From IMG/VR virus record IMGVR_UViG_2563366928_000012, positions 1 through 39,483 of that record: 39,483 bases of DNA. One strand, given 5' to 3'. The DNA is from a virus. Lineage: Duplodnaviria; Heunggongvirae; Uroviricota; Caudoviricetes. The notes beneath the pieces are model-generated. The model was given only the letters and a program-made list of their open reading frames with translations. It was not told the origin of the DNA and did no database searches. Below are positions 1-23,323 of the stretch, piece by piece (positions within the stretch are counted from its first letter, which is position 1; each line of letters opens with the position of its first letter). The translations under genes were made by a program, and so were the position numbers.

Positions 1-2946
1 TTAGTGCTTCCCTTCTATTAAGTCTAACCTAGCTTTTATCTTATCCATTTCTCTGCGCTGCCATGCCGCCTCGATATAGAATAAGAGATCAGGTCTGACC
101 CCCCATCTAGATCCTGCTGGCGTTATTTCAACGCGCTCAATGATGTCTTCTATTACCATCACTGGATTATCATCCTCATCAACAATGATGCTCCCGTCAT
201 TATCAGTCAGCGGCATTTCCCTTTGGCCAGTAATGACGTCATCATATACTGCGGGATAATCGTCATAGCAAAGAAAGGCATAGCGGCATGTTGTGCTTTC
301 TTCTTCCATGAGTCCGTGAGAAATAAGAACATCACGAAGTTGCTGCGCGATTACACCATGATGTATCCTCGCCCCTTCTTCCCCCTTTATAGCGACAGCG
401 TTCAGCCATTTATAAGCGATATACCTGACGTCACCCCAGGCATCCAGCAATGCTTCGTCAGGAGAGACCGGCTCTGTCTTTAATGTTCCGTCACTGGTAA
501 CCACAGGATTGGAGCCAAGATAAACTGTCGAGAACCTGTTTCCCGGACCACCAAGAGCATTTACATTATCAAGATAAGGTTTAACATCTCCGTTCTCAAA
601 AAGATGTTCGAGTGCGTTATATACCGCGCGACGTGGAGTACTGCTTCTGGAACCATGCAACGTTATCATTGCACCATCTGCTGAAGACGTTGTTTCACCG
701 CCGCTAACGATTAATCTCTGAGCGGTAACATCATCAGACGGTACTTTCTTCGCAATAATGGCGTAATTACCCTCAAGTTTGACTTCCGCGCGAACTTGTC
801 CTGATGTACCTGCATGGACAGTCAGTGACTGGACGGCAACATCATCTGTGAAATCAACGGGTACAGGAACCGTCCTCACGCCTGACGTCGACATAAAAGT
901 AGGAAGCGTTCTGTTAGGAGTGGCTCCGTAGACAAAATCCCTTGAAACAAATTCTTCCTGTTTAATTTTCACCCTGAAACAATACAAATCAGCCGGGTGA
1001 CCATCGTGAACATAAGGATATTTTCTGTTGTTATCCCCTATGCTCCATGGGTTTAGAAAGTCTTCCCCACCGAAAATGTAGTACAGCCAGTTGTCTTTGA
1101 TACAAACTGAACCAACACCAACCGCAGAGTTAACTATTCCGCCCTGATAAATCTGATCAGTAACATTAACCCACTCTACATTATCCAGACTCCACTCATT
1201 GACGTTAACTCTGGTCATAAATGTTCTTGGATAATTTCCTGCATAACGGTTATCAGGTTCTCCTCCTTCCCACTCACCAAATGCGCGCTCACTGCCAAAA
1301 ATAATCAGCTCATCGCCAACTTTGGCAAAAGGAAGGTTTGAGTGATGAACATTATTTGGGAAGCGAAGAGAATTCCATGATGTACCTAAATCAGAGCTTC
1401 TGTGCAATGAACTACCGGGTTGAGTACTTAATGTCCCCCTGGTCGTCAGATACAGAATGCCATCATAATATTTTACACATGGCTCAGATGCATTCGCCTC
1501 ATATTCTACAGGTATGCGTCTGCGAACAAAGCTACCAGGAGAACCGAAAGCATCAGAGAAATAGAGTATCCCAAGCTCGCGTGGACCAATATCACCATTA
1601 TGGTAGCCAACAGCAAAACTGTTATCGCTAATCGTCGCAAAACTGTGAATCTCAGTAACAGGAGTGCTTCCGTCAACAAAAGAAGGAATAGTTCCAAGAC
1701 TGGTTTTTCTCCATGGTGACGAGTGAAATGATGTGCCAAAACTCCAGTATCTACCCTCGTTATTCTGATCCACATCCTGGGTATTTTGCGTCGTAACTGT
1801 AAAGGTATTTTTATCAATAACAGTAGTCACCGTCATATTCCCGGTAACACCTGTAACACCAGAGTTTGAGAAGTTGACAAAATCACCAGCAAATAATCCG
1901 TGATCAGTAATGCGAATATAAGCGACTTGCTGATTTGCTGCTTTCGTTATACCACCATAAACGCGAAGGCTGCGACTCATTGGGCGATCCCACAACTCTG
2001 CAACCTGCAGTTTATTTCCTCTCACGGTCCGCGTCTCAATTACAGCAAAAAGGCGATTTCTGACAACCCCCATACTCATGCAGTGATAGTTAACTGTGGG
2101 ATAGTTTTCATGTAAATCTGTAAGCCATTCCGGCGTTGTCCAGGTCTTCCCGTCATCTCCTGAGCGAACCCATGCAACATGGAGGTTATTTACACCATGG
2201 CGGTCTCCAGCCATAAAAGGCGCATAGATGACATTGTCATATACAAACGTTTTATCCTGCGTCCAGGCGTTGTACCACGGTGTATCTGTAATTTTAAATA
2301 ACTCTCCCTGGATAAAATCTTCAGAAGCATAAAAAAGAGGCTGACCCGGTATTCTCTCAAATAAAAAACGAGCATTTTTAAATCGACTGACATCTGGAAG
2401 AGTTGATACTTTAAAAGTAAGCCCTCGCCCATCTATCTTTTCACCACCTGTTGCAACAGAAAGTAATTCTGATAGAGCTGATGTATCATCATGAACACCA
2501 TCACCAATAGCCCCCCAACCTCTTACATCATAACTGTCTCTCCATCTTGCTATCTGAAGTTTTGGGTATTTATTCGCTCCATCTGGGTCTTCTAATTGCC
2601 GCCGTAACTGATCAGGATCATACTTCAGCACATTCGGAAAATAGAACTGCTGCGCACCATACGCATCATAAACAGCCATAGAATGGCCTTGCACAGTTAC
2701 GAATTTGGCAATCTGTCCGTTATATACAGGATATCCAGCAGCGTTAATGATGATTGGTTGCGAAACAGGAACGTGAGAGCCGTCTTCGTTTTCCACATAA
2801 ACCTGAATCTGGTTTTCAGGATTTACAGGGTCAGTGTCAATTTTACCGATATAAATTTTGCCATTGGCTACGGCTTTAAAAGAACGCGCCATAGTGAAGA
2901 GTTGCGAAGGCATCGATACGATCACATTGGCTGTAATGTCTCTCAT
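1..2946 (-). CDS. Tailspike: P22-type head-binding N-terminus fused to endo-N-acylneuraminidase (endosialidase) with C-terminal intramolecular chaperone domain
   Basis: 981 aa ORF. N-terminus [11 protein letters not shown]...[21 protein letters not shown] matches recalled P22 gp9 head-binding domain. Sialidase Asp-box motifs SGDDGKTW and SSDLGTSW. C-terminal region resembles the autocleaving chaperone domain of endosialidase tailspikes. GGAG RBS upstream of ATG at 2946. Confidence 0.8.
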
Positions 2947-3002
2947 TTAATTTGCTCCAGACACAAGGAATCGCCGCAGCATGGCTACGGTGAATTTTGG
3001 GC

Positions 3003-3029
3003 ATAAAAAAACCCAGCCGAAGCTGGGTC
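3003..3029 (-). terminator. Intrinsic terminator between ant and tailspike
   Basis: Minus-strand hairpin ACCCAGC-TTCG-GCTGGGT followed by TTTTTTTAT. Confidence 0.5.
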
Positions 3030-3046
3030 GTTGCGTTGGTTATCTG

Positions 3047-3949
3047 TCAGTAGTTATGTACTGAAGGAGGTAATTCTTTATTCTTAAGTCTCATCCATGC
3101 GGAAAGATTCGTTGGTCCGTCTGGCTCATTAATATCAACATCTCGTGTATGGTTGATTAAAACATCTCTCGCTATATCGATAATACGGGAGAACTCATAA
3201 CCGCAGTCATGACATCTGCCGGAATAGTTCGATTGAATTTGTTTCAGCGCCGGATACAGTTCGCGGAATAATGCCTGTGAGCGGTTGGCATAATCCCATA
3301 ACCATACAAGGCTGTTTGCTTCTTTTGCAGAAAGCTCGTTGACTTTCCTCTCTTGTTTGCCAATGAACTCACCTTCAAGCACTACCCTGTGGATGTACTC
3401 TACGGCTTGCGGTATCTGAGATGCATCAAGCTCTTCAATACTTTCCACATTGAAACGCTGATGAATCATTGCATAAGCTTCTGGGTACATTAGATGCTTT
3501 TTGCTGACCAGCATATTTACAGCATCACGAAGCGGAGTCCTGTCATCAACAGATGTTTTCTTACGTGCATTTTCTGCCTTTCCCTTTGTCCAGTAGTCAT
3601 GCAGCACAGTAAAGCATTCTTCCTGGTACTGAATCAGTTTATCGCGGATGTCAGCACGAACTTTCTCGGGGTTGATGCTGAACAGCCATCCATTTAACTT
3701 CTTCAAAGGAAGGCAGAGTAGCTTACGAAGCTTTCCATCAGCAGCAACCATATTCATATGAATACAGTTGAACTTATCTAGTTGTTTCATAAGTTTTTGT
3801 TGCTGAGTACCCCAGCTCATTCCGAGGTTTTCAACGATTGGCTTCATCGCAACATATGCAACTCCGGCAGCCATGGCGGTGATAATTTGCTGACCGTTGA
3901 ATGGTACGTAAGAGGTGTTCACTGCTTCTAAAATTGCTATACTATTCAT
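3047..3949 (-). CDS. ant: Antirepressor Ant (immI)
   Basis: 300 aa from internal ATG ([10 protein letters not shown]...) with GGAGAA RBS; position downstream of arc and upstream of tailspike as in P22. The longer track ORF start at 4015 is judged read-through. Confidence 0.7.
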
Positions 3950-4011
3950 GTTGGTTTTTCTCCACGGATTTACTGACAACCGAAGCCCTGACTGTTCCCG
4001 CAGTTGGGGCT

Positions 4012-4215
4012 TCAACTTTCTGATCTATCAGTTATATCTTTCCCTTCATATACTTCACCTATATTGCTAATGCTGGCAGAACATCCAAGATGCTTGTATC
4101 TTATGATGTCCAACACGCAGTCACTACACAGCATCCGACCTGTTTCTTTAGAGTAAATGTATGTTTGATCAGCGTCTGATTCGCTAATGCCGCAGAAACA
4201 ACATTCTTTACTCAT
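4012..4215 (-). CDS. Small Cys-rich (zinc-ribbon-like) protein inserted between arc and ant
   Basis: 67 aa with CCFCG, CSDC and a further Cys. Start ATG overlaps the arc stop (ATGA), suggesting translational coupling. Confidence 0.45.
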
Positions 4216-4364
4216 ACCATTACCCCCTCTCTCTTCAAGCTGTCTATCAGGCGCTTGATAACCTCTGAGTTAAACGACCTGCACTCTTCCTTTGCCCTGC
4301 TACCTATAGCATCCTTTAACGACTGCGGCATCCTTACCAAAATCTTACTTATTTCTTTCTCCAT
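4212..4364 (-). CDS. arc: Arc-like ribbon-helix-helix repressor
   Basis: 50 aa from ATG with GGAGGG RBS; motif CRSFNSEVIKRLIDSLKREG resembles P22 Arc (RSVNSE motif). Confidence 0.75.
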   Translation of the reverse strand: MEKEISKILVRMPQSLKDAIGSRAKEECRSFNSEVIKRLIDSLKREGVMV

Positions 4365-4400: not shown

Positions 4401-4478
4401 AAGATATCAAAGTGAGTATATCTAGTCAAAATTTTTTTGCATACACTTTGCTATCAAATTGAATACCAAAGGTGTGAT
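4401..4478. promoter_or_regulatory. Divergent arc/ant and mnt promoter-operator region
   Basis: Intergenic region between divergent arc and mnt; contains inverted repeat CAAAGTG ... CACTTTG and a GATATC palindrome. Confidence 0.4.
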
Positions 4479-4727
4479 ATGGCAAAGGGTGTGTCAATTT
4501 CTCCAACTACGGTAAGAATCCCTGAATCTTTACGCGAGGCTCTTGCTGTCAGAGCATCAAAAAATGGTCGCTCTGTTAACTCCGAGATCGTCATGATTTT
4601 GCAAGCCGCGATTGATGAAGATAGGTCGCCAAAGTCAGTTGAGTCATTTGCTCAGCAAGAAGCTGACAAATTCAAAGAGGCGCTGCTTGAGACGCTAAAG
4701 ACCATGTATGGTAAGGATGAAAAATAA
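4479..4727 (+). CDS. mnt: Mnt-like repressor
   Basis: Starts MAKGVSISPTTVRIPESLREALAVRASKNGRSVNSEIV; RHH with GRSVNSE motif as in P22 Mnt/Arc family. Stop overlaps next ATG by one base. Confidence 0.75.
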   Translation: MAKGVSISPTTVRIPESLREALAVRASKNGRSVNSEIVMILQAAIDEDRSPKSVESFAQQEADKFKEALLETLKTMYGKDEK

Positions 4728-5263
4728 TGCTGCACACAATTCATTTCTTATGCCCCGTTAACACTGCCACTGTTGGGCAACTTCAGAACCACTGTCTCAC
4801 CGCATTATCTCAAGGCGCAACTGAATTAAATATCCATATATCAAGTCAGGGAGGGGAAACTGCCGCTGGCTTTACTGCGTATAACTTTCTTAAGTCACTC
4901 CCTGTTACCGTTAGAACTCACAACATAAGCAATGTTGAATCCATAGCTAATATCGTTTTCCTGGCTGGCTCAGAACGTTTCGCAAACCCATTATCAAGAT
5001 TCCTGTTACATCCTCTATTATGGTGCTTTGCCTCCCCAGCCGCCGACCATGCCAGATTGAGAGAGTACGGGAAATGCCTCGATAACGATCTTGATCGCTT
5101 CGTTGAGACGTTCAATATCGACATCGGAACCCATATTAGGTGGGCATCCCTGATAGCAGACTCGACCATTTTGGATGCTAACAAGGCTCTTGAGCATGGC
5201 ATAATTAATTCCATAAAAACTGCAAGGCTGGCATCCAATCAGGCAAACTGGTGGGTTGTTTGA
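4727..5263 (+). CDS. ClpP-like (S14 Clp-fold) serine protease homolog
   Basis: 178 aa. ISSQGGETAAGFTAYNFL...SIANIVFLAGSERF...LLHP aligns by eye with ClpP (INSPGGVITAG...SMGAFLLTAG...MIHQP), with Ser and His conserved. Coupled to mnt. Confidence 0.55.
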   Translation: MLHTIHFLCPVNTATVGQLQNHCLTALSQGATELNIHISSQGGETAAGFTAYNFLKSLPVTVRTHNISNVESIANIVFLAGSERFANPLSRFLLHPLLWCFASPAADHARLREYGKCLDNDLDRFVETFNIDIGTHIRWASLIADSTILDANKALEHGIINSIKTARLASNQANWWVV

Positions 5264-5286: not shown

Positions 5287-5320
5287 ATAAAAAACCCACC
5301 TGACGGTGGGATTTTCTTAT
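5287..5320. terminator. Bidirectional intrinsic terminator between convergent genes
   Basis: AAAAAA-CCCACC-TGAC-GGTGGG-ATTTTCTTATT; A-run upstream and T-run downstream of the stem. Confidence 0.6.
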
Positions 5321-6309
5321 TCTTTATCTTTTAAGTCTATGGTTCTTTGTCCAATAACCTTTTCATCTATGTATTTCTCATACTCTTCTCGAGTATCAGA
5401 AACCATTGCAATACCAGTAACCTTACCTATTTGGGTTCTAAGAGCCTTAACTCCAACCTCTGATAAAAACTGGTGTATTTTATCGTTTTTGCTGCCTTTT
5501 TCTTCTTTTGACGTTTTTGCTAAATTAAATACCTTTCCTTCACTTCTGGCTAATGGGTAATAAATGTGATCTATCGTAAGATATTTAAACGCCCATGGTC
5601 GCCCTCTAACTGGTTTGTCTATACCATACAGACGATACCAATGCTCATAAAGTTCAGGGGTGAACTCTCTTTCATACTCACGAGCCTCTTCAGCAACATA
5701 TCGCTTATATGCTTGAATTACCTCTTCTTTTGTTCTGTCATACCCTGCCAAAGCATAAACAAGCCCCTGAATGCCCGCCTTGGCTGATGCATCAATAATG
5801 ATTCTGGCTTGCTTAGCAATCCCTTCCTGACTGGAAAGCAACTTACCTTCAGCTTTAGCATTAGAGATTGCTCGACATAAATCAATTAATATTGTTACAT
5901 CGTAGCCATGTATTACAGGATTAGCTGGAGTGTTCGTGCCCGCCTGTTTGTATTGAAAAATAAGAGGATTTTCAAGTTTTGCCCTTAATTCATGCCCGAT
6001 ATACTGAGAAATAGTTTTCCCCTGAATAAACTTTGGCAACCTGCTGCCACCTTCGCCAAGACCAATCGCTTCTCCCATGCCTCTCTGGCTAATAACGGCA
6101 GTTTTGTTATCATCATTTAACACATAGCACTCAACATCAATCCCGAATTCATGCTGGAACGATCCCTTATGCGTAGCAATTAATGGTTTATCCTTCCATC
6201 TTGCAGCCGCTGCTTTCTTTGCTATTTCAGAACGCTGCTCTTTAGTCAGCGACTTTGCGCGAGCGATACCGCCCTTAGCTTTCCCTTCGCCACTTTTCTT
6301 TTCAGTCAT
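5317..6309 (-). CDS. Hypothetical 330-aa protein with basic N-terminal putative DNA-binding region (accessory cargo)
   Basis: Start MTEKKSGEGKAKGGIARAKSLTKEQRSEIAKKAAAARW; rest not recognised with certainty. Longer track ORF start at 6384 rejected. Confidence 0.55.
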   Translation of the reverse strand: MTEKKSGEGKAKGGIARAKSLTKEQRSEIAKKAAAARWKDKPLIATHKGSFQHEFGIDVECYVLNDDNKTAVISQRGMGEAIGLGEGGSRLPKFIQGKTISQYIGHELRAKLENPLIFQYKQAGTNTPANPVIHGYDVTILIDLCRAISNAKAEGKLLSSQEGIAKQARIIIDASAKAGIQGLVYALAGYDRTKEEVIQAYKRYVAEEAREYEREFTPELYEHWYRLYGIDKPVRGRPWAFKYLTIDHIYYPLARSEGKVFNLAKTSKEEKGSKNDKIHQFLSEVGVKALRTQIGKVTGIAMVSDTREEYEKYIDEKVIGQRTIDLKDKE

Positions 6310-6310
6310 A

Positions 6311-6400
6311 ATGCAAGCACCTTTATTGTGATGTATGCTTGCATTATATGCACTGTACACACATACAAGCAAGCATAAAACCAAAACAAAATGCTTGCAT
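6311..6400. promoter_or_regulatory. Operator-like inverted repeat array in divergent promoter region
   Basis: Four copies of an 8-9 bp motif as two inverted pairs: ATGCAAGCA (6311-6319) / TGCTTGCAT (6336-6344) and GCAAGCAT (6369-6376) / ATGCTTGC (6391-6398). Confidence 0.5.
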
Positions 6401-6465
6401 TACAACCGCGCTACTCCAACTACACATTATCATCTGGTATCCTGAGCAAAACTAAGGAGGTTGGT

Positions 6466-6795
6466 GTGCTTGAATGGTTTCTGTTGGCTGCATTAGTCGT
6501 TTCTGGTTTGGTGTATGAGTATCGAATGCACTCTCTAACAAAAAAAATAGGAATTCTAGAAAACGAATATTGTGCTCTCAAATCCTCACTGGAACGTGAG
6601 CAAGGGGACTTAAAAATCTCTCTGTCTAGCATTGAGCGTTCTATAGAGAGCTTAGAGGATAAGGTTGATCGTATAAAGAATGAGGATATTCATGATATTA
6701 AGGACGACATATCCTTCTTAAAATCTTGGTTGAAAAATGTTGGGAAAATTGCCACATCAACACGAGATAAGCTCAATCCATCCATGGATGACTAA
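6466..6795 (+). CDS. Small membrane-anchored coiled-coil protein (accessory cargo)
   Basis: GTG start 5 nt after AGGAGG RBS; N-terminal hydrophobic helix LEWFLLAALVVSGLVYEY followed by charged heptad-like region. Converges on gp16 stop. Confidence 0.5.
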   Translation: MLEWFLLAALVVSGLVYEYRMHSLTKKIGILENEYCALKSSLEREQGDLKISLSSIERSIESLEDKVDRIKNEDIHDIKDDISFLKSWLKNVGKIATSTRDKLNPSMDD

Positions 6796-8931
6796 TTACT
6801 CCTGTGCCATTCCGCTTAGCGATGCCACAATTCCAGCTCTTGCTAAACGCTGGAACTCTTCGTTTCCTAGTGCCTCGCGTATTGCTTTTACGGCGGCCTT
6901 ATTTGCCATAAATCTGCGTTCCGCCGCCGCTAATGCGCCATCACTTGCCCCAACCTTAACTGCCTTTGTTGCCTCTTGAACAGCCTTTTCAATAGCGTAA
7001 CGACCGCTTCTAGTTGCGGATAATTTCGCTATCGCTCCTTTTGCCATTGCATCAATTGCCCCACCTGCAGCGCCACCCGCTATTGCTCCAATAACGCCTC
7101 CTCCAGAGAACCCTGCGATAGTGCCAGTAGTTCTAAAAGCGCCAGACAATGCGCTCTCTAAAACTGGATGAAGGCCATTCTCAAGAGTGCTAATGGCTGG
7201 CATAGATCGCCCTGTCTGTTCAACATATCGAAGTGGCTTTGTTGCTGCTCGTGCAAGTTCTCCGTATGAACTTGTAATCCTGCCAAGTTCTGGAGAATAT
7301 CGACTAATTGCCTTCACGTTTTGTGGGGTAAGAATAGTCGCGATATGCTTAATTCCAGCCTCTTCAGACTTACCTCCGCGTACCCCTTGCGATACCGCAT
7401 CTTGTAATATTGATGCAATTGCTGGCGCGCGTTCCGACTCAGGTAGGGCGCTTATTATTTTATGGAACTGACCTGTTCCACTTTTTGCTGAACCCTGCAA
7501 CGCCTTAGAGCCATTAGTTACCAACTGATCAGTTGCAAGGTCTCTACCAAACGCTGCTTCAGCCTGTTCTTGTGCTGTAAATCTTGCTTTTGACAGATCA
7601 TTAGCTTTTTGCCAGTCATCAAGAAAACCGCCATTTTGAGCCATTATGCGCATATCTTCCGTTGCTGCATCACGAAGCTCAGCCATGCGCCTTGCCGTAT
7701 TTGCCTCACCAGACCTTATATACTTCTGCTCTGCGTCAGCAAGTTTACTTCGCCATGCCTTCATGGCATCAAACGTGATTCCTTTTTTACTAGTTTTAGC
7801 ATAAGCAGATGCGAATTGTTTCATCTCAGGAGTTAGCGGCATGCCGGCCAAAATATCACCCTGAATTGTAGCGTTCAGGTTTGACATTCTGGCCTTTGCG
7901 TCAGGCATCGTGGAGCGGACGCTATCCCATGCGGCCTTTTCTGAATTTTTCATTTTATCAATACTTGCCAAAACCCTTTGTTTTATGGCTGCACTTTTTT
8001 CTGATGCAGTTCCTGCTTCAGCCCCAAACTCATCCAATGCTGAGTTAAATTTCGACTCTATTTCACTGAATGCTTTGGTGTGTGCATCCTGTGTAATTCC
8101 GGGCTTTGACGCCAGAATCCCCTCCGCCTGAGCAAGACCACGACTACCTGATCTCATGCCAGGAGTTAATGCGTTGATATCTATTCCAGCAGTATCTGCT
8201 GCTTTTGCTATTTCGTCTGACACATTAGCTGACTGTCTGGCAATAATCTCTCTTCCTGTACCAGACTTTGCCATTTTCGAAACATCAGCAGCGGAATTTA
8301 TTGCCCCGCCACCAAGAACTTGAGGTGATTTAGAGGTTAAGATCCTTCCAGCCCCAGAAAGTATCCCCTGAGCACCAATATTGATACCACCGTTAATGGC
8401 AGCATTTTGTGCAAAGTCGCCCTCCTGATTTGCAGCATCAGCAAGAGAACCTGCAATCATGTTTCCTGCGGAACCGATATCTCCAGCGAGCTTTGCTGTC
8501 GCTCCAGCAGCTTTTGCCGCTGTGCCAATTGGCAGGAGATACCCACCAATTGTTTCACCGGCTTGCGCGTAAGGGTCTGTCGGTCGCTCGACAGGGCGAT
8601 AAACATCATCCAAAACCTTGGGGCCACCAAGCCCCTGGCTGATTGCATTAATCAGACTTGCGCCACCCTGCAATACGTCAAATGGTATGTTTACCAGACC
8701 ACGACCAGCCTGTTCTGCAATTTGCCCTGCACTTTGACCACCAGTGAGCCAATCGCCAGCTTGTTGCATCAATGATGGTTCTTCCCGTGTTGGTGCATTA
8801 TTGGCCTGATTAACTGTTTGTTGCTGAACAGCCTGACCAGCAAAATACTCATCAATGGCGGTGCCAATATCTTCCGTGCTCGTACCATCAGGAAAGGTAA
8901 ATGTCTTACCGTTTGCAGTAACTTTCATCAT
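6796..8931 (-). CDS. Ejection (injection) protein, P22 gp16-like
   Basis: 711 aa, Ala/Gly-rich, position after gp20 in the conserved P22 order 7-20-16. Confidence 0.65.
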
Positions 8932-23167: not shown

Positions 23168-23243
23168 TGGTGCTGGTTAACGGACTTGAACCGCTACCCA
23201 TTCGCTTACAAGGCGACTGCTCTACCATTGGAGCTAAACCAGC
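23168..23243 (-). tRNA. tRNA, anticodon UGU (Thr) by hand fold
   Basis: 76 nt cloverleaf: acceptor GCTGGTT/AACCAGC, D-stem GCTC/GAGC, anticodon loop CTTGTAA, T-loop TTCAAGT, encoded 3' ACCA. Confidence 0.6.
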
Positions 23244-23248
23244 ATGTT

Positions 23249-23323
23249 TGGCGGGACAGCGTGGACTCGAACCACGATAAGAAGGTTAACAGCCTTCCGT
23301 AATGACCTTTATACGACTGACCC
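23249..23323 (-). tRNA. tRNA-like, anticodon GUU (Asn) by hand fold, imperfect stems
   Basis: 75 nt: anticodon stem GAAGG/CCTTC, loop CTGTTAA, T-arm CGTGG-TTCGAGT-CCACG, 3' GCCA; one acceptor-stem and one D-stem mismatch. Confidence 0.45.

Follow-up and report, generated by a model that had tools for sequence, protein, structure and literature searches.

Does the short cysteine-rich open reading frame (ORF) that lies between arc and ant in one P22-type immunity region encode a protein and, if so, what kind of protein is it and what might it do? We addressed this question in the Caudoviricetes record IMGVR_UViG_2563366928_000012 of IMG/VR, the whole of which (39,483 nucleotides (nt); hereafter, the window) was analysed. 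Its immunity I (immI) region shares with that of phage P22 (mnt-arc-sar-ant; Sauer 1983) the promoters, arc, the sar RNA, a hairpin and ant, whereas P22 and epsilon34 are without a gene between arc and ant and the window has one. Our analyses indicate that the ORF is very likely a genuine coding gene of the Pant operon, coupled to arc, whose product consists of a free-standing domain homologous to, though diverged from, the C4 zinc-binding N-domain of the ClpX unfoldase and a short acidic tail after it. What this protein does is a harder question, and the answer that we favour, modulation of host ClpXP, is offered tentatively.

The reading frame as a gene of the Pant operon

An earlier note on this DNA, made from the sequence alone, had described a 67-codon ORF that is extra relative to P22, begins on the arc stop and ends just before the ant ribosome-binding site. 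The first two points hold: the arc-ant interval of P22 and epsilon34 (where arc stops at window-equivalent 4018-4020) encodes sar alone, so that the ORF is an insertion relative to P22, and the arc TGA (4214-4212) and the ORF ATG (4215-4213) form an ATGA overlap at 4212-4215. The third was loosely right, as the ORF stop stands 48 nt from the GGAG and 62 nt from the ATG of ant, these 62 nt being the sar target. The P22 homology of the window ends at 4019, and window positions 3900-4019 are 100% identical to epsilon34. At the 3' end, the TGA of the ORF is made of a T and the first GA of the hairpin GAAGCCCCAACTGCGGGAACAGTCAGGGCTTCG, and the 3' end of sar covers the final codon of the ORF together with its stop; at the 5' end, the Shine-Dalgarno-like run GAGAGGGGG in the last arc codons is kept in every cargo-bearing arc allele (5' junctions compared in 10 loci). 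The ORF shares the strand of arc and ant, sits between arc and the sar target and lies 3' of a Pant-like promoter whose position agrees with Pant/arcO of epsilon34, and a consensus scan revealed no promoter-like or terminator-like site inside 4012-4215. As the note had also proposed, it is thus embedded in the Pant-arc-ant transcript and is probably translated coupled to arc, with which the overlap geometry is consistent. A classical moron (in the sense of Hendrix and Juhala, with its own promoter and terminator) was considered and rejected, given that the start of the ORF overlaps the arc stop and that the scan found no signals of its own; the ORF is instead cargo in an operon, inside the larger 'ant moron' region. 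Its G+C content is 0.39 (0.47 for the window), and the C-terminal tail of ~25 amino acids (aa) is acidic and little conserved.

Conservation across E. coli supports a coding role. The frame stays open in 0.4% of shuffles of the internal bases of the ORF, and an intact 67-aa ORF is present in 28 of 28 non-O157 IMG/VR loci with just three amino-acid variants, adjoining three arc alleles and with a ClpP-like gene (see below) present or absent. The ORF is also intact in CUS-3 (with a single substitution, S65A), UTI89 and O114, and the same ORF is paired with at least three ant N-terminal types. Of the exact protein alleles, one is recorded for 1000 contigs or more and the other for 264. Because E. 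coli copies are 98.5-100% identical (while their flanks are mosaic), these alleles alone yield no signal in the ratio of nonsynonymous to synonymous rates (dN/dS); the segment appears to be a module that has been circulating recently. In total, 372 of 5426 complete E. coli genomes contain the ORF segment, which allele-specific probes of 45-46 nt divided into 70 with the in-frame form and 302 with an additional T (+1 T) in the T-run after codon 7, an O157:H7-type allele that truncates the protein after that codon. The earlier note had named disruption in close relatives as the mark of a non-coding spacer; such disruption was seen in the O157:H7 lineage only, where the immI fragment is decaying, and the ORF is intact elsewhere. 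The frameshift arose once, in a clonal lineage whose arc is likewise broken. In EDL933 (O157:H7, NZ_CP008957.1; L005 locus 2936-3360), the immI fragment has phage tail genes on one side and the effector gene nleL on the other; fragments of this type contain ant, the frameshifted zinc-domain ORF, a shortened and often broken arc, and mnt.

More distant relatives were sought by an exhaustive phmmer search of 1.8 billion proteins, which returned one genuine distant relative, the 68-aa protein P0013 (E = 1e-4); higher-scoring matches to immunoglobulin (Ig)-repeat and tetratricopeptide (TPR)-repeat proteins, each matched in many stretches, were rejected as repeat-amplified noise. A word-indexed homology search recovered just near-identical E. 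coli clusters and broken variants, and a genome-contig scan with the single window protein gave no match. Across the full alignment, P0013 and the window protein share 31% identity. The genes for P0013 and its relative P0017 lie in P22-like prophages of Salmonella at the identical arc-to-hairpin position, with a start that overlaps the arc stop (ATGA or GTGA), a hairpin-fused TGA 62-63 nt before ant, and mnt (which carries a Repressor_Mnt Pfam tag in Salmonella loci) and the same ClpP-like gene alongside. Residues invariant between the window protein and the Salmonella type include C5, C6, F7, C8, G9, S22, K23, T25, C30, C33 and I37. The conservation check that the note had suggested therefore came out in favour of the ORF, which persists with its Cys spacing in related immI regions, this Salmonella homologue in the same slot included. 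The Cys codons of P0017 differ synonymously from those of other alleles and, over codons 1-41, the proportions of nonsynonymous (pN) and synonymous (pS) differences between the E. coli and Salmonella types are 0.40 and 0.68, respectively. Two close Salmonella alleles gave a dN/dS of ~1.2 on 17 differences, a value that is uninformative because the shifted frame yields the same one.

Could the ORF nonetheless be a chance reading frame in a mosaic boundary spacer, or a decaying remnant? Consistent with that explanation, RefSeq (Prokaryotic Genome Annotation Pipeline, PGAP) places no coding sequence at the ORF in the complete genomes inspected, the CUS-3 record calls the region a 'boundary sequence', 302 of the 372 carrier genomes are frameshifted and dN/dS is ~1 between two close alleles; GenBank assemblies label the product 'hypothetical protein'. 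Yet the frameshift traces to that single event, the shuffle test gave 0.4%, Salmonella (at 31% identity) and four further subfamilies (below) still have the ORF with its length, overlapping start and Cys pairs maintained, and one of those subfamilies exceeds the Pfam threshold for the ClpX domain. We regard a non-functional ORF as largely refuted, with scarcely any probability left to it; the Salmonella homologue, the Cys codons, pN/pS and the slot survey together argue for a gene rather than a spacer. In CUS-3 (CP000711.1; L002 locus 2580-2986; ~6559-6965 of the record), the feature 'bsq2; boundary sequence' spans an Arc-family ORF (MKVKTLRMPEKLE...SLKREGVMV) as well as the 67-aa zinc-domain ORF, neither gene being annotated. 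A published comparison describes CUS-3 as apparently lacking arc (PMC2629481), a statement that the CUS-3 sequence contradicts.

A cassette slot and a probable ClpX-type zinc-binding domain

To survey the position occupied by the ORF, IMG/VR was scanned for the sar hairpin and the ORFs 5' of the hairpin were read in 80 loci; 15 have zinc-type cargo, 12 have other cargo and the remainder are P22-like without cargo. In the majority state, a P22-type arc (ending ...FKKEGRIGA) stops 4 nt before the hairpin and there is no cargo. In arc alleles ending ...SLKREGxxV, the next gene overlaps the arc stop (ATGA or GTGA) and takes its TGA from a T and the first GA of the hairpin, which forms the 3' border of the slot. 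Zinc-type cargo comprises the window type (8 loci, and 2 more with a frameshift), a 63-aa CCFCG protein (L077), a 60-aa CSFCGKPQHE...ICSSCVSLC protein (L099 and one truncated), a 74-aa CDFC...ICNKCI protein (L092 and L103) and the 68-aa Salmonella type. Cargo unrelated to the zinc type comprises a basic protein of 57 aa (phrog_17642), a protein of 89 aa with one predicted membrane helix (phrog_27312), a protein of 73 aa (L078, L097, L109 and L118) and one of 80 aa (L091). The occupants of the slot thus fall into at least five CxxC...CxxC protein subfamilies, alongside no fewer than four small genes unrelated to them. Both the 5' and the 3' junctions are conserved at the DNA level and are common to all cargo genes, so that cargo is likely to be exchanged by homologous recombination in the flanks; phages phiv205-1 and EC.P3, for example, have the same arc, mnt and ClpP-like genes with other cargo.

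Several further observations were made on individual loci. The 73-aa and 80-aa cargo proteins have weak matches to the Pfam family FlbD (flagellar/swarming; E = 0.025 and 1.7e-4, both below threshold). In L076 and L107, where the slot looks empty, the 33 nt between the arc stop and the hairpin are what a deletion has left of the 57-aa cargo gene, ~17 nt from each of its ends being joined at a short repeat (CTTGGATGC / CTTGATGC). P0001 (112 aa, from a Logan assembly) is an Arc-zinc-domain fusion that arose from a 1-nt change at the ATGA junction. Among L099-type copies, one has a nonsense mutation (CSFC-stop-K; L178 locus 3001-3180) and another, at L128, is truncated.

It was only after the slot survey had supplied intermediate sequences that the link to ClpX became convincing. 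The two Cys pairs of the window protein (C5-x2-C8 and C30-x2-C33) have the spacing and context of the ClpX type, in which CxxC pairs ~18-21 residues apart stand within CxFCG and [ILV]CxxC[VI], and C5, F7, C8, C30 and C33 are invariant in a seven-sequence alignment of all subfamilies and E. coli ClpX. The L099-type protein scores 43 bits (E = 4e-11) against Pfam zf-C4_ClpX (PF06689), above the gathering threshold of 27 bits, matches the ClpX zinc-binding domain (ZBD) structures 1OVX and 2DS5 at ~1e-7 and is named 'ClpX C4-type zinc finger protein' in RefSeq. The other slot-mates all score below threshold on this family (18.9, 13.2, 12 and 10.2 bits), and for the 74-aa, Salmonella and 63-aa types this match is the sole one or the better of two (E = 0.0015-0.75); the UniProt label of the Salmonella homologue P0017 is 'ClpX-type ZB domain-containing protein'. 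With the ClpX-like subfamily left out, a profile of the window's CCFCG subgroup had a sole significant match in the PDB, to residues 5-45 of ClpX (6VFS), at a marginal E value of 0.008, and aligned with the L099 type at an hhalign probability of 82.7%. A six-subfamily profile placed ClpX chains in all of its top seven PDB matches (best, 6.7e-7).

The earlier description of the protein as zinc-ribbon-like can accordingly be kept for its four-Cys, putatively zinc-binding character and revised for its class, which is predicted, with good but not complete confidence, to be a divergent ClpX-type treble-clef domain rather than a generic zinc ribbon. Compared with the ClpX N-domain (PF06689; PROSITE PS51902; 1OVX, 2DS5-8), the likeness lies in the motif CxFCG...[IL]CxxC[VI], whose second CxxC is predicted to begin a helix, and in a size of ~40 residues; the window protein differs in being free-standing and phage-encoded in an immunity operon, without an AAA+ module, and in having three extra residues between the Cys pairs and the acidic tail. 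AlphaFold2 (AF2) models of low confidence (predicted local distance difference test (pLDDT) score, 55-57) consist of a knuckle, a hairpin and a helix that begins at the second CxxC. Membership of the RING class was examined and rejected: a phmmer match to RNF4 (E = 0.005) was inflated by the tandem RING in 4AP4, a single RING giving E ~0.3. Unlike RING, ZZ and U-box treble clefs (RNF4, for example), the family keeps one four-Cys site and has no second cross-brace site; four Cys are conserved family-wide, and the positions of RNF4 ligands 3 and 4 are occupied by T and R.

Possible roles of the protein

The N-domain of ClpX is a dimer that binds lambda O, MuA, UmuD', FtsZ, MqsA and the SspB adaptor (PMC8808172). 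A phage protein built like that domain may act as its mimic or competitor, a role that we consider possible, though somewhat doubtful. Under this proposal the protein would be made with Arc and Ant in the brief Pant burst, when Mnt and Arc are not yet present; it would pair with the dimeric ClpX N-domains, or capture their ligands, and so alter for a time the set of substrates and adaptors handled by ClpXP. Alleles of arc, ant and mnt vary independently of the ORF, which suggests a host-directed rather than an immI-directed role. One possible benefit would be the sparing of a phage protein, such as the lambda-O-type initiator of the window, which encodes a Phage_rep_O protein; the N-terminus of this initiator (MSNLATV...) is presumably unlike that of lambda O, and there is no direct support for O as the protected substrate. 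Identity and mechanism taken together are the best explanation that we can offer, one that we hold tentatively and rate at a little below an even chance.

A second gene related to ClpXP lies nearby, encoding a 178-aa ClpP-like protease whose copies in E. coli and Salmonella prophages share 97-100% identity. The nearest PDB entry to this protease is ClpP1 of P. plecoglossicida (9UXT; E = 1.6e-35), a paralogue with a truncated N-terminus that assembles together with canonical ClpP and boosts degradation that depends on ClpX (PMC12900304); the phage protein apparently retains Ser and His of the catalytic triad. Given its overlap with the mnt stop (TAATG), the gene is probably expressed along with Mnt from the prophage. 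It sits in the gene 16-to-gene 9 interval, the variable region where P22 carries sieA. The presence of two ClpXP-related modules in one immunity region is suggestive; an obligatory linkage between the ORF and the ClpP-like gene was rejected by co-occurrence counts.

A number of results weigh against the ClpX identity, the mimicry or both. The window protein itself has no zf-C4_ClpX match even at E <= 10 and so stands outside the curated family; family scans with it gave only UPF0167 in Pfam (E = 0.26), nothing in NCBIfam or PADLOC, and in PHROGs phrog_7150 (function unknown) with a weak match to phrog_5259. Compared directly with residues 1-62 of E. coli ClpX, it gave weak signals (BLASTP E = 0.03; hhalign probability, 30%), and its link to ClpX appears transitive and, at the E value of 0.008 given above, marginal. 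RING and ZZ domains score at least as well as the ClpX ZBD against the low-confidence models. The window type and the other subfamilies have diverged (17-35% identity to the window protein), and this divergence, together with a dN/dS of ~1.2, looks like rapid or relaxed evolution, where simple mimicry of a near-invariant host protein predicts otherwise. Of the ClpX residues needed for SspB and MqsA binding, L12, L13 and H23 (PMC8808172), none is kept in the window type, in which S13 replaces H23 and which begins just four residues before its first Cys; a His equivalent to H23 is kept in the L099 type only. The gene is also dispensable, being absent from P22, swapped for other genes elsewhere, frameshifted in the 302 O157-type genomes and nonsense-mutated in L178. 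Finally, the ClpP-like gene accompanies 5 of 11 intact zinc cargoes and 9 of 51 other loci in the hairpin survey (counts in which relatedness is not corrected), occurs in 1 of 6 L099-type loci and is absent from CUS-3.

How do other roles compare? The protein might instead be an accessory ('moron-like') gene product whose zinc domain targets some other host factor in early anti-defence, as the earlier note had also suggested, or in host takeover, with no part for ClpXP. A swap slot with alternative small cargo genes, low G+C content, fast divergence with a variable tail and the predicted early-burst expression are all typical of counter-defence loci, and the predicted treble-clef, RING/ZZ-like fold class would provide a generic peptide-binding scaffold. 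However, the protein has no similarity to known anti-defence proteins, PADLOC assigned no family to the ORF, the phiv205-1 and EC.P3 cargo proteins, the ClpP-like protein or the P63C-domain protein of the window (although PADLOC models defence rather than anti-defence), and the sole family-level signal is that of the ClpX ZBD; we consider this role unlikely. Less likely again is an action of the zinc domain on a phage partner within immI (Ant, Arc or the ant leader) that would tune antirepressor output, despite the location of the ORF between arc and ant, its probable co-translation with Arc and the fact that zinc-type proteins are the commonest and most diversified occupants of the slot. The ORF stop falls inside the sar:ant pairing region, such that translation of the ORF could affect leader structure; P22, however, regulates ant without the ORF, the slot contains unrelated genes or nothing beside the same arc and ant, and no nucleic-acid-binding family was matched. 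The suggestion of the earlier note that the ORF modulates ant expression found no support in our analyses, and it loses weight because the ORF, identical in sequence, accompanies three arc alleles and no fewer than three N-terminal types of ant.

A partnership with the phage ClpP-like protease, for which the protein would serve as a substitute 'N-domain' that selects substrates, would account for the presence of both genes in the window and in 6 of 6 Salmonella loci examined, and for the higher frequency of the ClpP-like gene beside intact zinc cargoes. That enrichment is weak, with relatedness not corrected, and the two genes lie on opposite strands under opposite regulation (Pmnt versus Pant). 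Moreover, 16 of 28 E. coli loci with an intact ORF lack the ClpP-like gene, as CUS-3 does, the low count for L099-type loci points the same way, and phiv205-1 and EC.P3 pair the ClpP-like gene with other cargo. This partnership strikes us as highly improbable. Modulation of host ClpXP by a ClpX N-domain mimic thus remains the reading that we prefer, at the tentative strength given above.

Surroundings of the gene and its place among known systems

The features discussed here, together with others in the window, are listed in Table 1. Beyond the ClpP-like gene, the P63C-domain and 134-aa genes take up what is left of the variable region, as far as the ejection-protein genes. In an E. coli genome with an arc-ORF-ant stretch identical to that of the window (NZ_CP159170.1), this P63C/134-aa stretch is replaced by genes with ORF6N and P22AR_C domains, so that the window is a different mosaic. 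The tailspike appears, from DNA similarity and synteny with CUS-3 and UTI89, to be of the K1 endosialidase type; if so, the window would be a CUS-3-like K1 prophage.

Table 1. Positions of the immI genes, signals and other features in the window
Feature	Positions	Strand	Basis
Cys-rich ORF, 67 codons	4012..4215	minus	ATG-start ORF in the open-reading-frame listing
Putative zinc ligands of the ORF	C5 4203-4201, C8 4194-4192, C30 4128-4126, C33 4119-4117	minus	sequence
arc, 50 aa, C-terminal end ...SLKREGVMV	4212..4364	minus	Pfam Arc PF03869, E 4.4e-12
Pant-like sigma-70 promoter, TTGACT-17-TATCTT with TG, 5' of arc	4401..4429	minus	consensus scan
GAGAGGGGG, Shine-Dalgarno-like run in the last arc codons, 7 nt 5' of the ORF ATG	4223..4231	minus	
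Hairpin GAAGCCCCAACTGCGGGAACAGTCAGGGCTTCG in the ant leader; other strand is the sar terminator	3981..4013	minus	conserved
sar antisense RNA gene	3950..4017	plus	Rfam RF00262, 95.6 bits, E 4e-21; epsilon34 annotation mapped
Psar promoter (putative)	3915..3943	plus	position, mapped from the epsilon34 record
ant antirepressor, 300 aa	3047..3949	minus	Pfam P22_AR_N 7e-45, P22_AR_C 1.6e-27
mnt-like ribbon-helix-helix (RHH) repressor, divergent from arc	4479..4727	plus	Pfam Arc/FitA-like RHH
ClpP-like protease gene, 178 aa, overlaps mnt stop (TAATG)	4727..5263	plus	Pfam CLP_protease 2e-11
P63C-domain protein	5317-6309	minus	Pfam E 1.2e-8
134-aa protein, no family	6391-6795	plus	
Two adjoining phage tRNA genes, tRNA-Thr(TGT) and tRNA-Asn(GTT)	23168-23323	minus	
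Tailspike with P22-type head-binding N-terminus	1-2946	minus	

P22-like phages are known to differ greatly in the immI region, or 'ant moron' (PMC2629481, Villafane et al. 2008), and neither the arc-ant slot nor its cargo families are described in three immI papers (PMC2629481, PMC8022706 and PMC10883804). Literature searches revealed no publication on any member of the ORF family and no description of phage-encoded ClpX-ZBD proteins, of the CUS-3 boundary-sequence gene or of a ClpX-directed phage protein of this type. Automated labels had already catalogued the gene as hypothetical and named a sister subfamily; new here is that the window type is placed in the ClpX ZBD family, that the slot is defined and that cargo of the ZBD type recurs in it.

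Phages are known to alter ATP-dependent proteases of the host by means of small early proteins, with T4 PinA and T7 Gp4.5 acting on Lon and lambda cIII on FtsH. The job proposed for the window protein would be alike, as a hypothetical functional analogy, with no sequence or fold relationship to these proteins. ClpXP controls many proteins that matter to phages, among them lambda O, MuA, repressor fragments, antitoxins and, via adaptors, sigma-S. In a still more speculative extension, which we think rather unlikely as a whole, P22-like phages would carry a swappable early slot whose commonest cargo is a set of fast-diversifying ClpX N-domain mimics, a class of host ClpXP modulators not recognised before, perhaps acting together with a phage ClpP1-like subunit that infiltrates the ClpP barrel, and thereby control regulator stability at the lysis-lysogeny decision.

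Together, these results expose an annotation gap, as neither the RefSeq annotation of the complete genomes inspected nor the CUS-3 record, which overlooks arc too, includes the ORF, and they define a precisely bordered slot in which further early accessory genes can be mined. If the protein does redirect or blunt ClpXP, members of this family would be natural, compact tools with which to perturb N-domain-dependent proteolysis, and their action would add a new layer to the P22 immunity I circuit, a textbook system.

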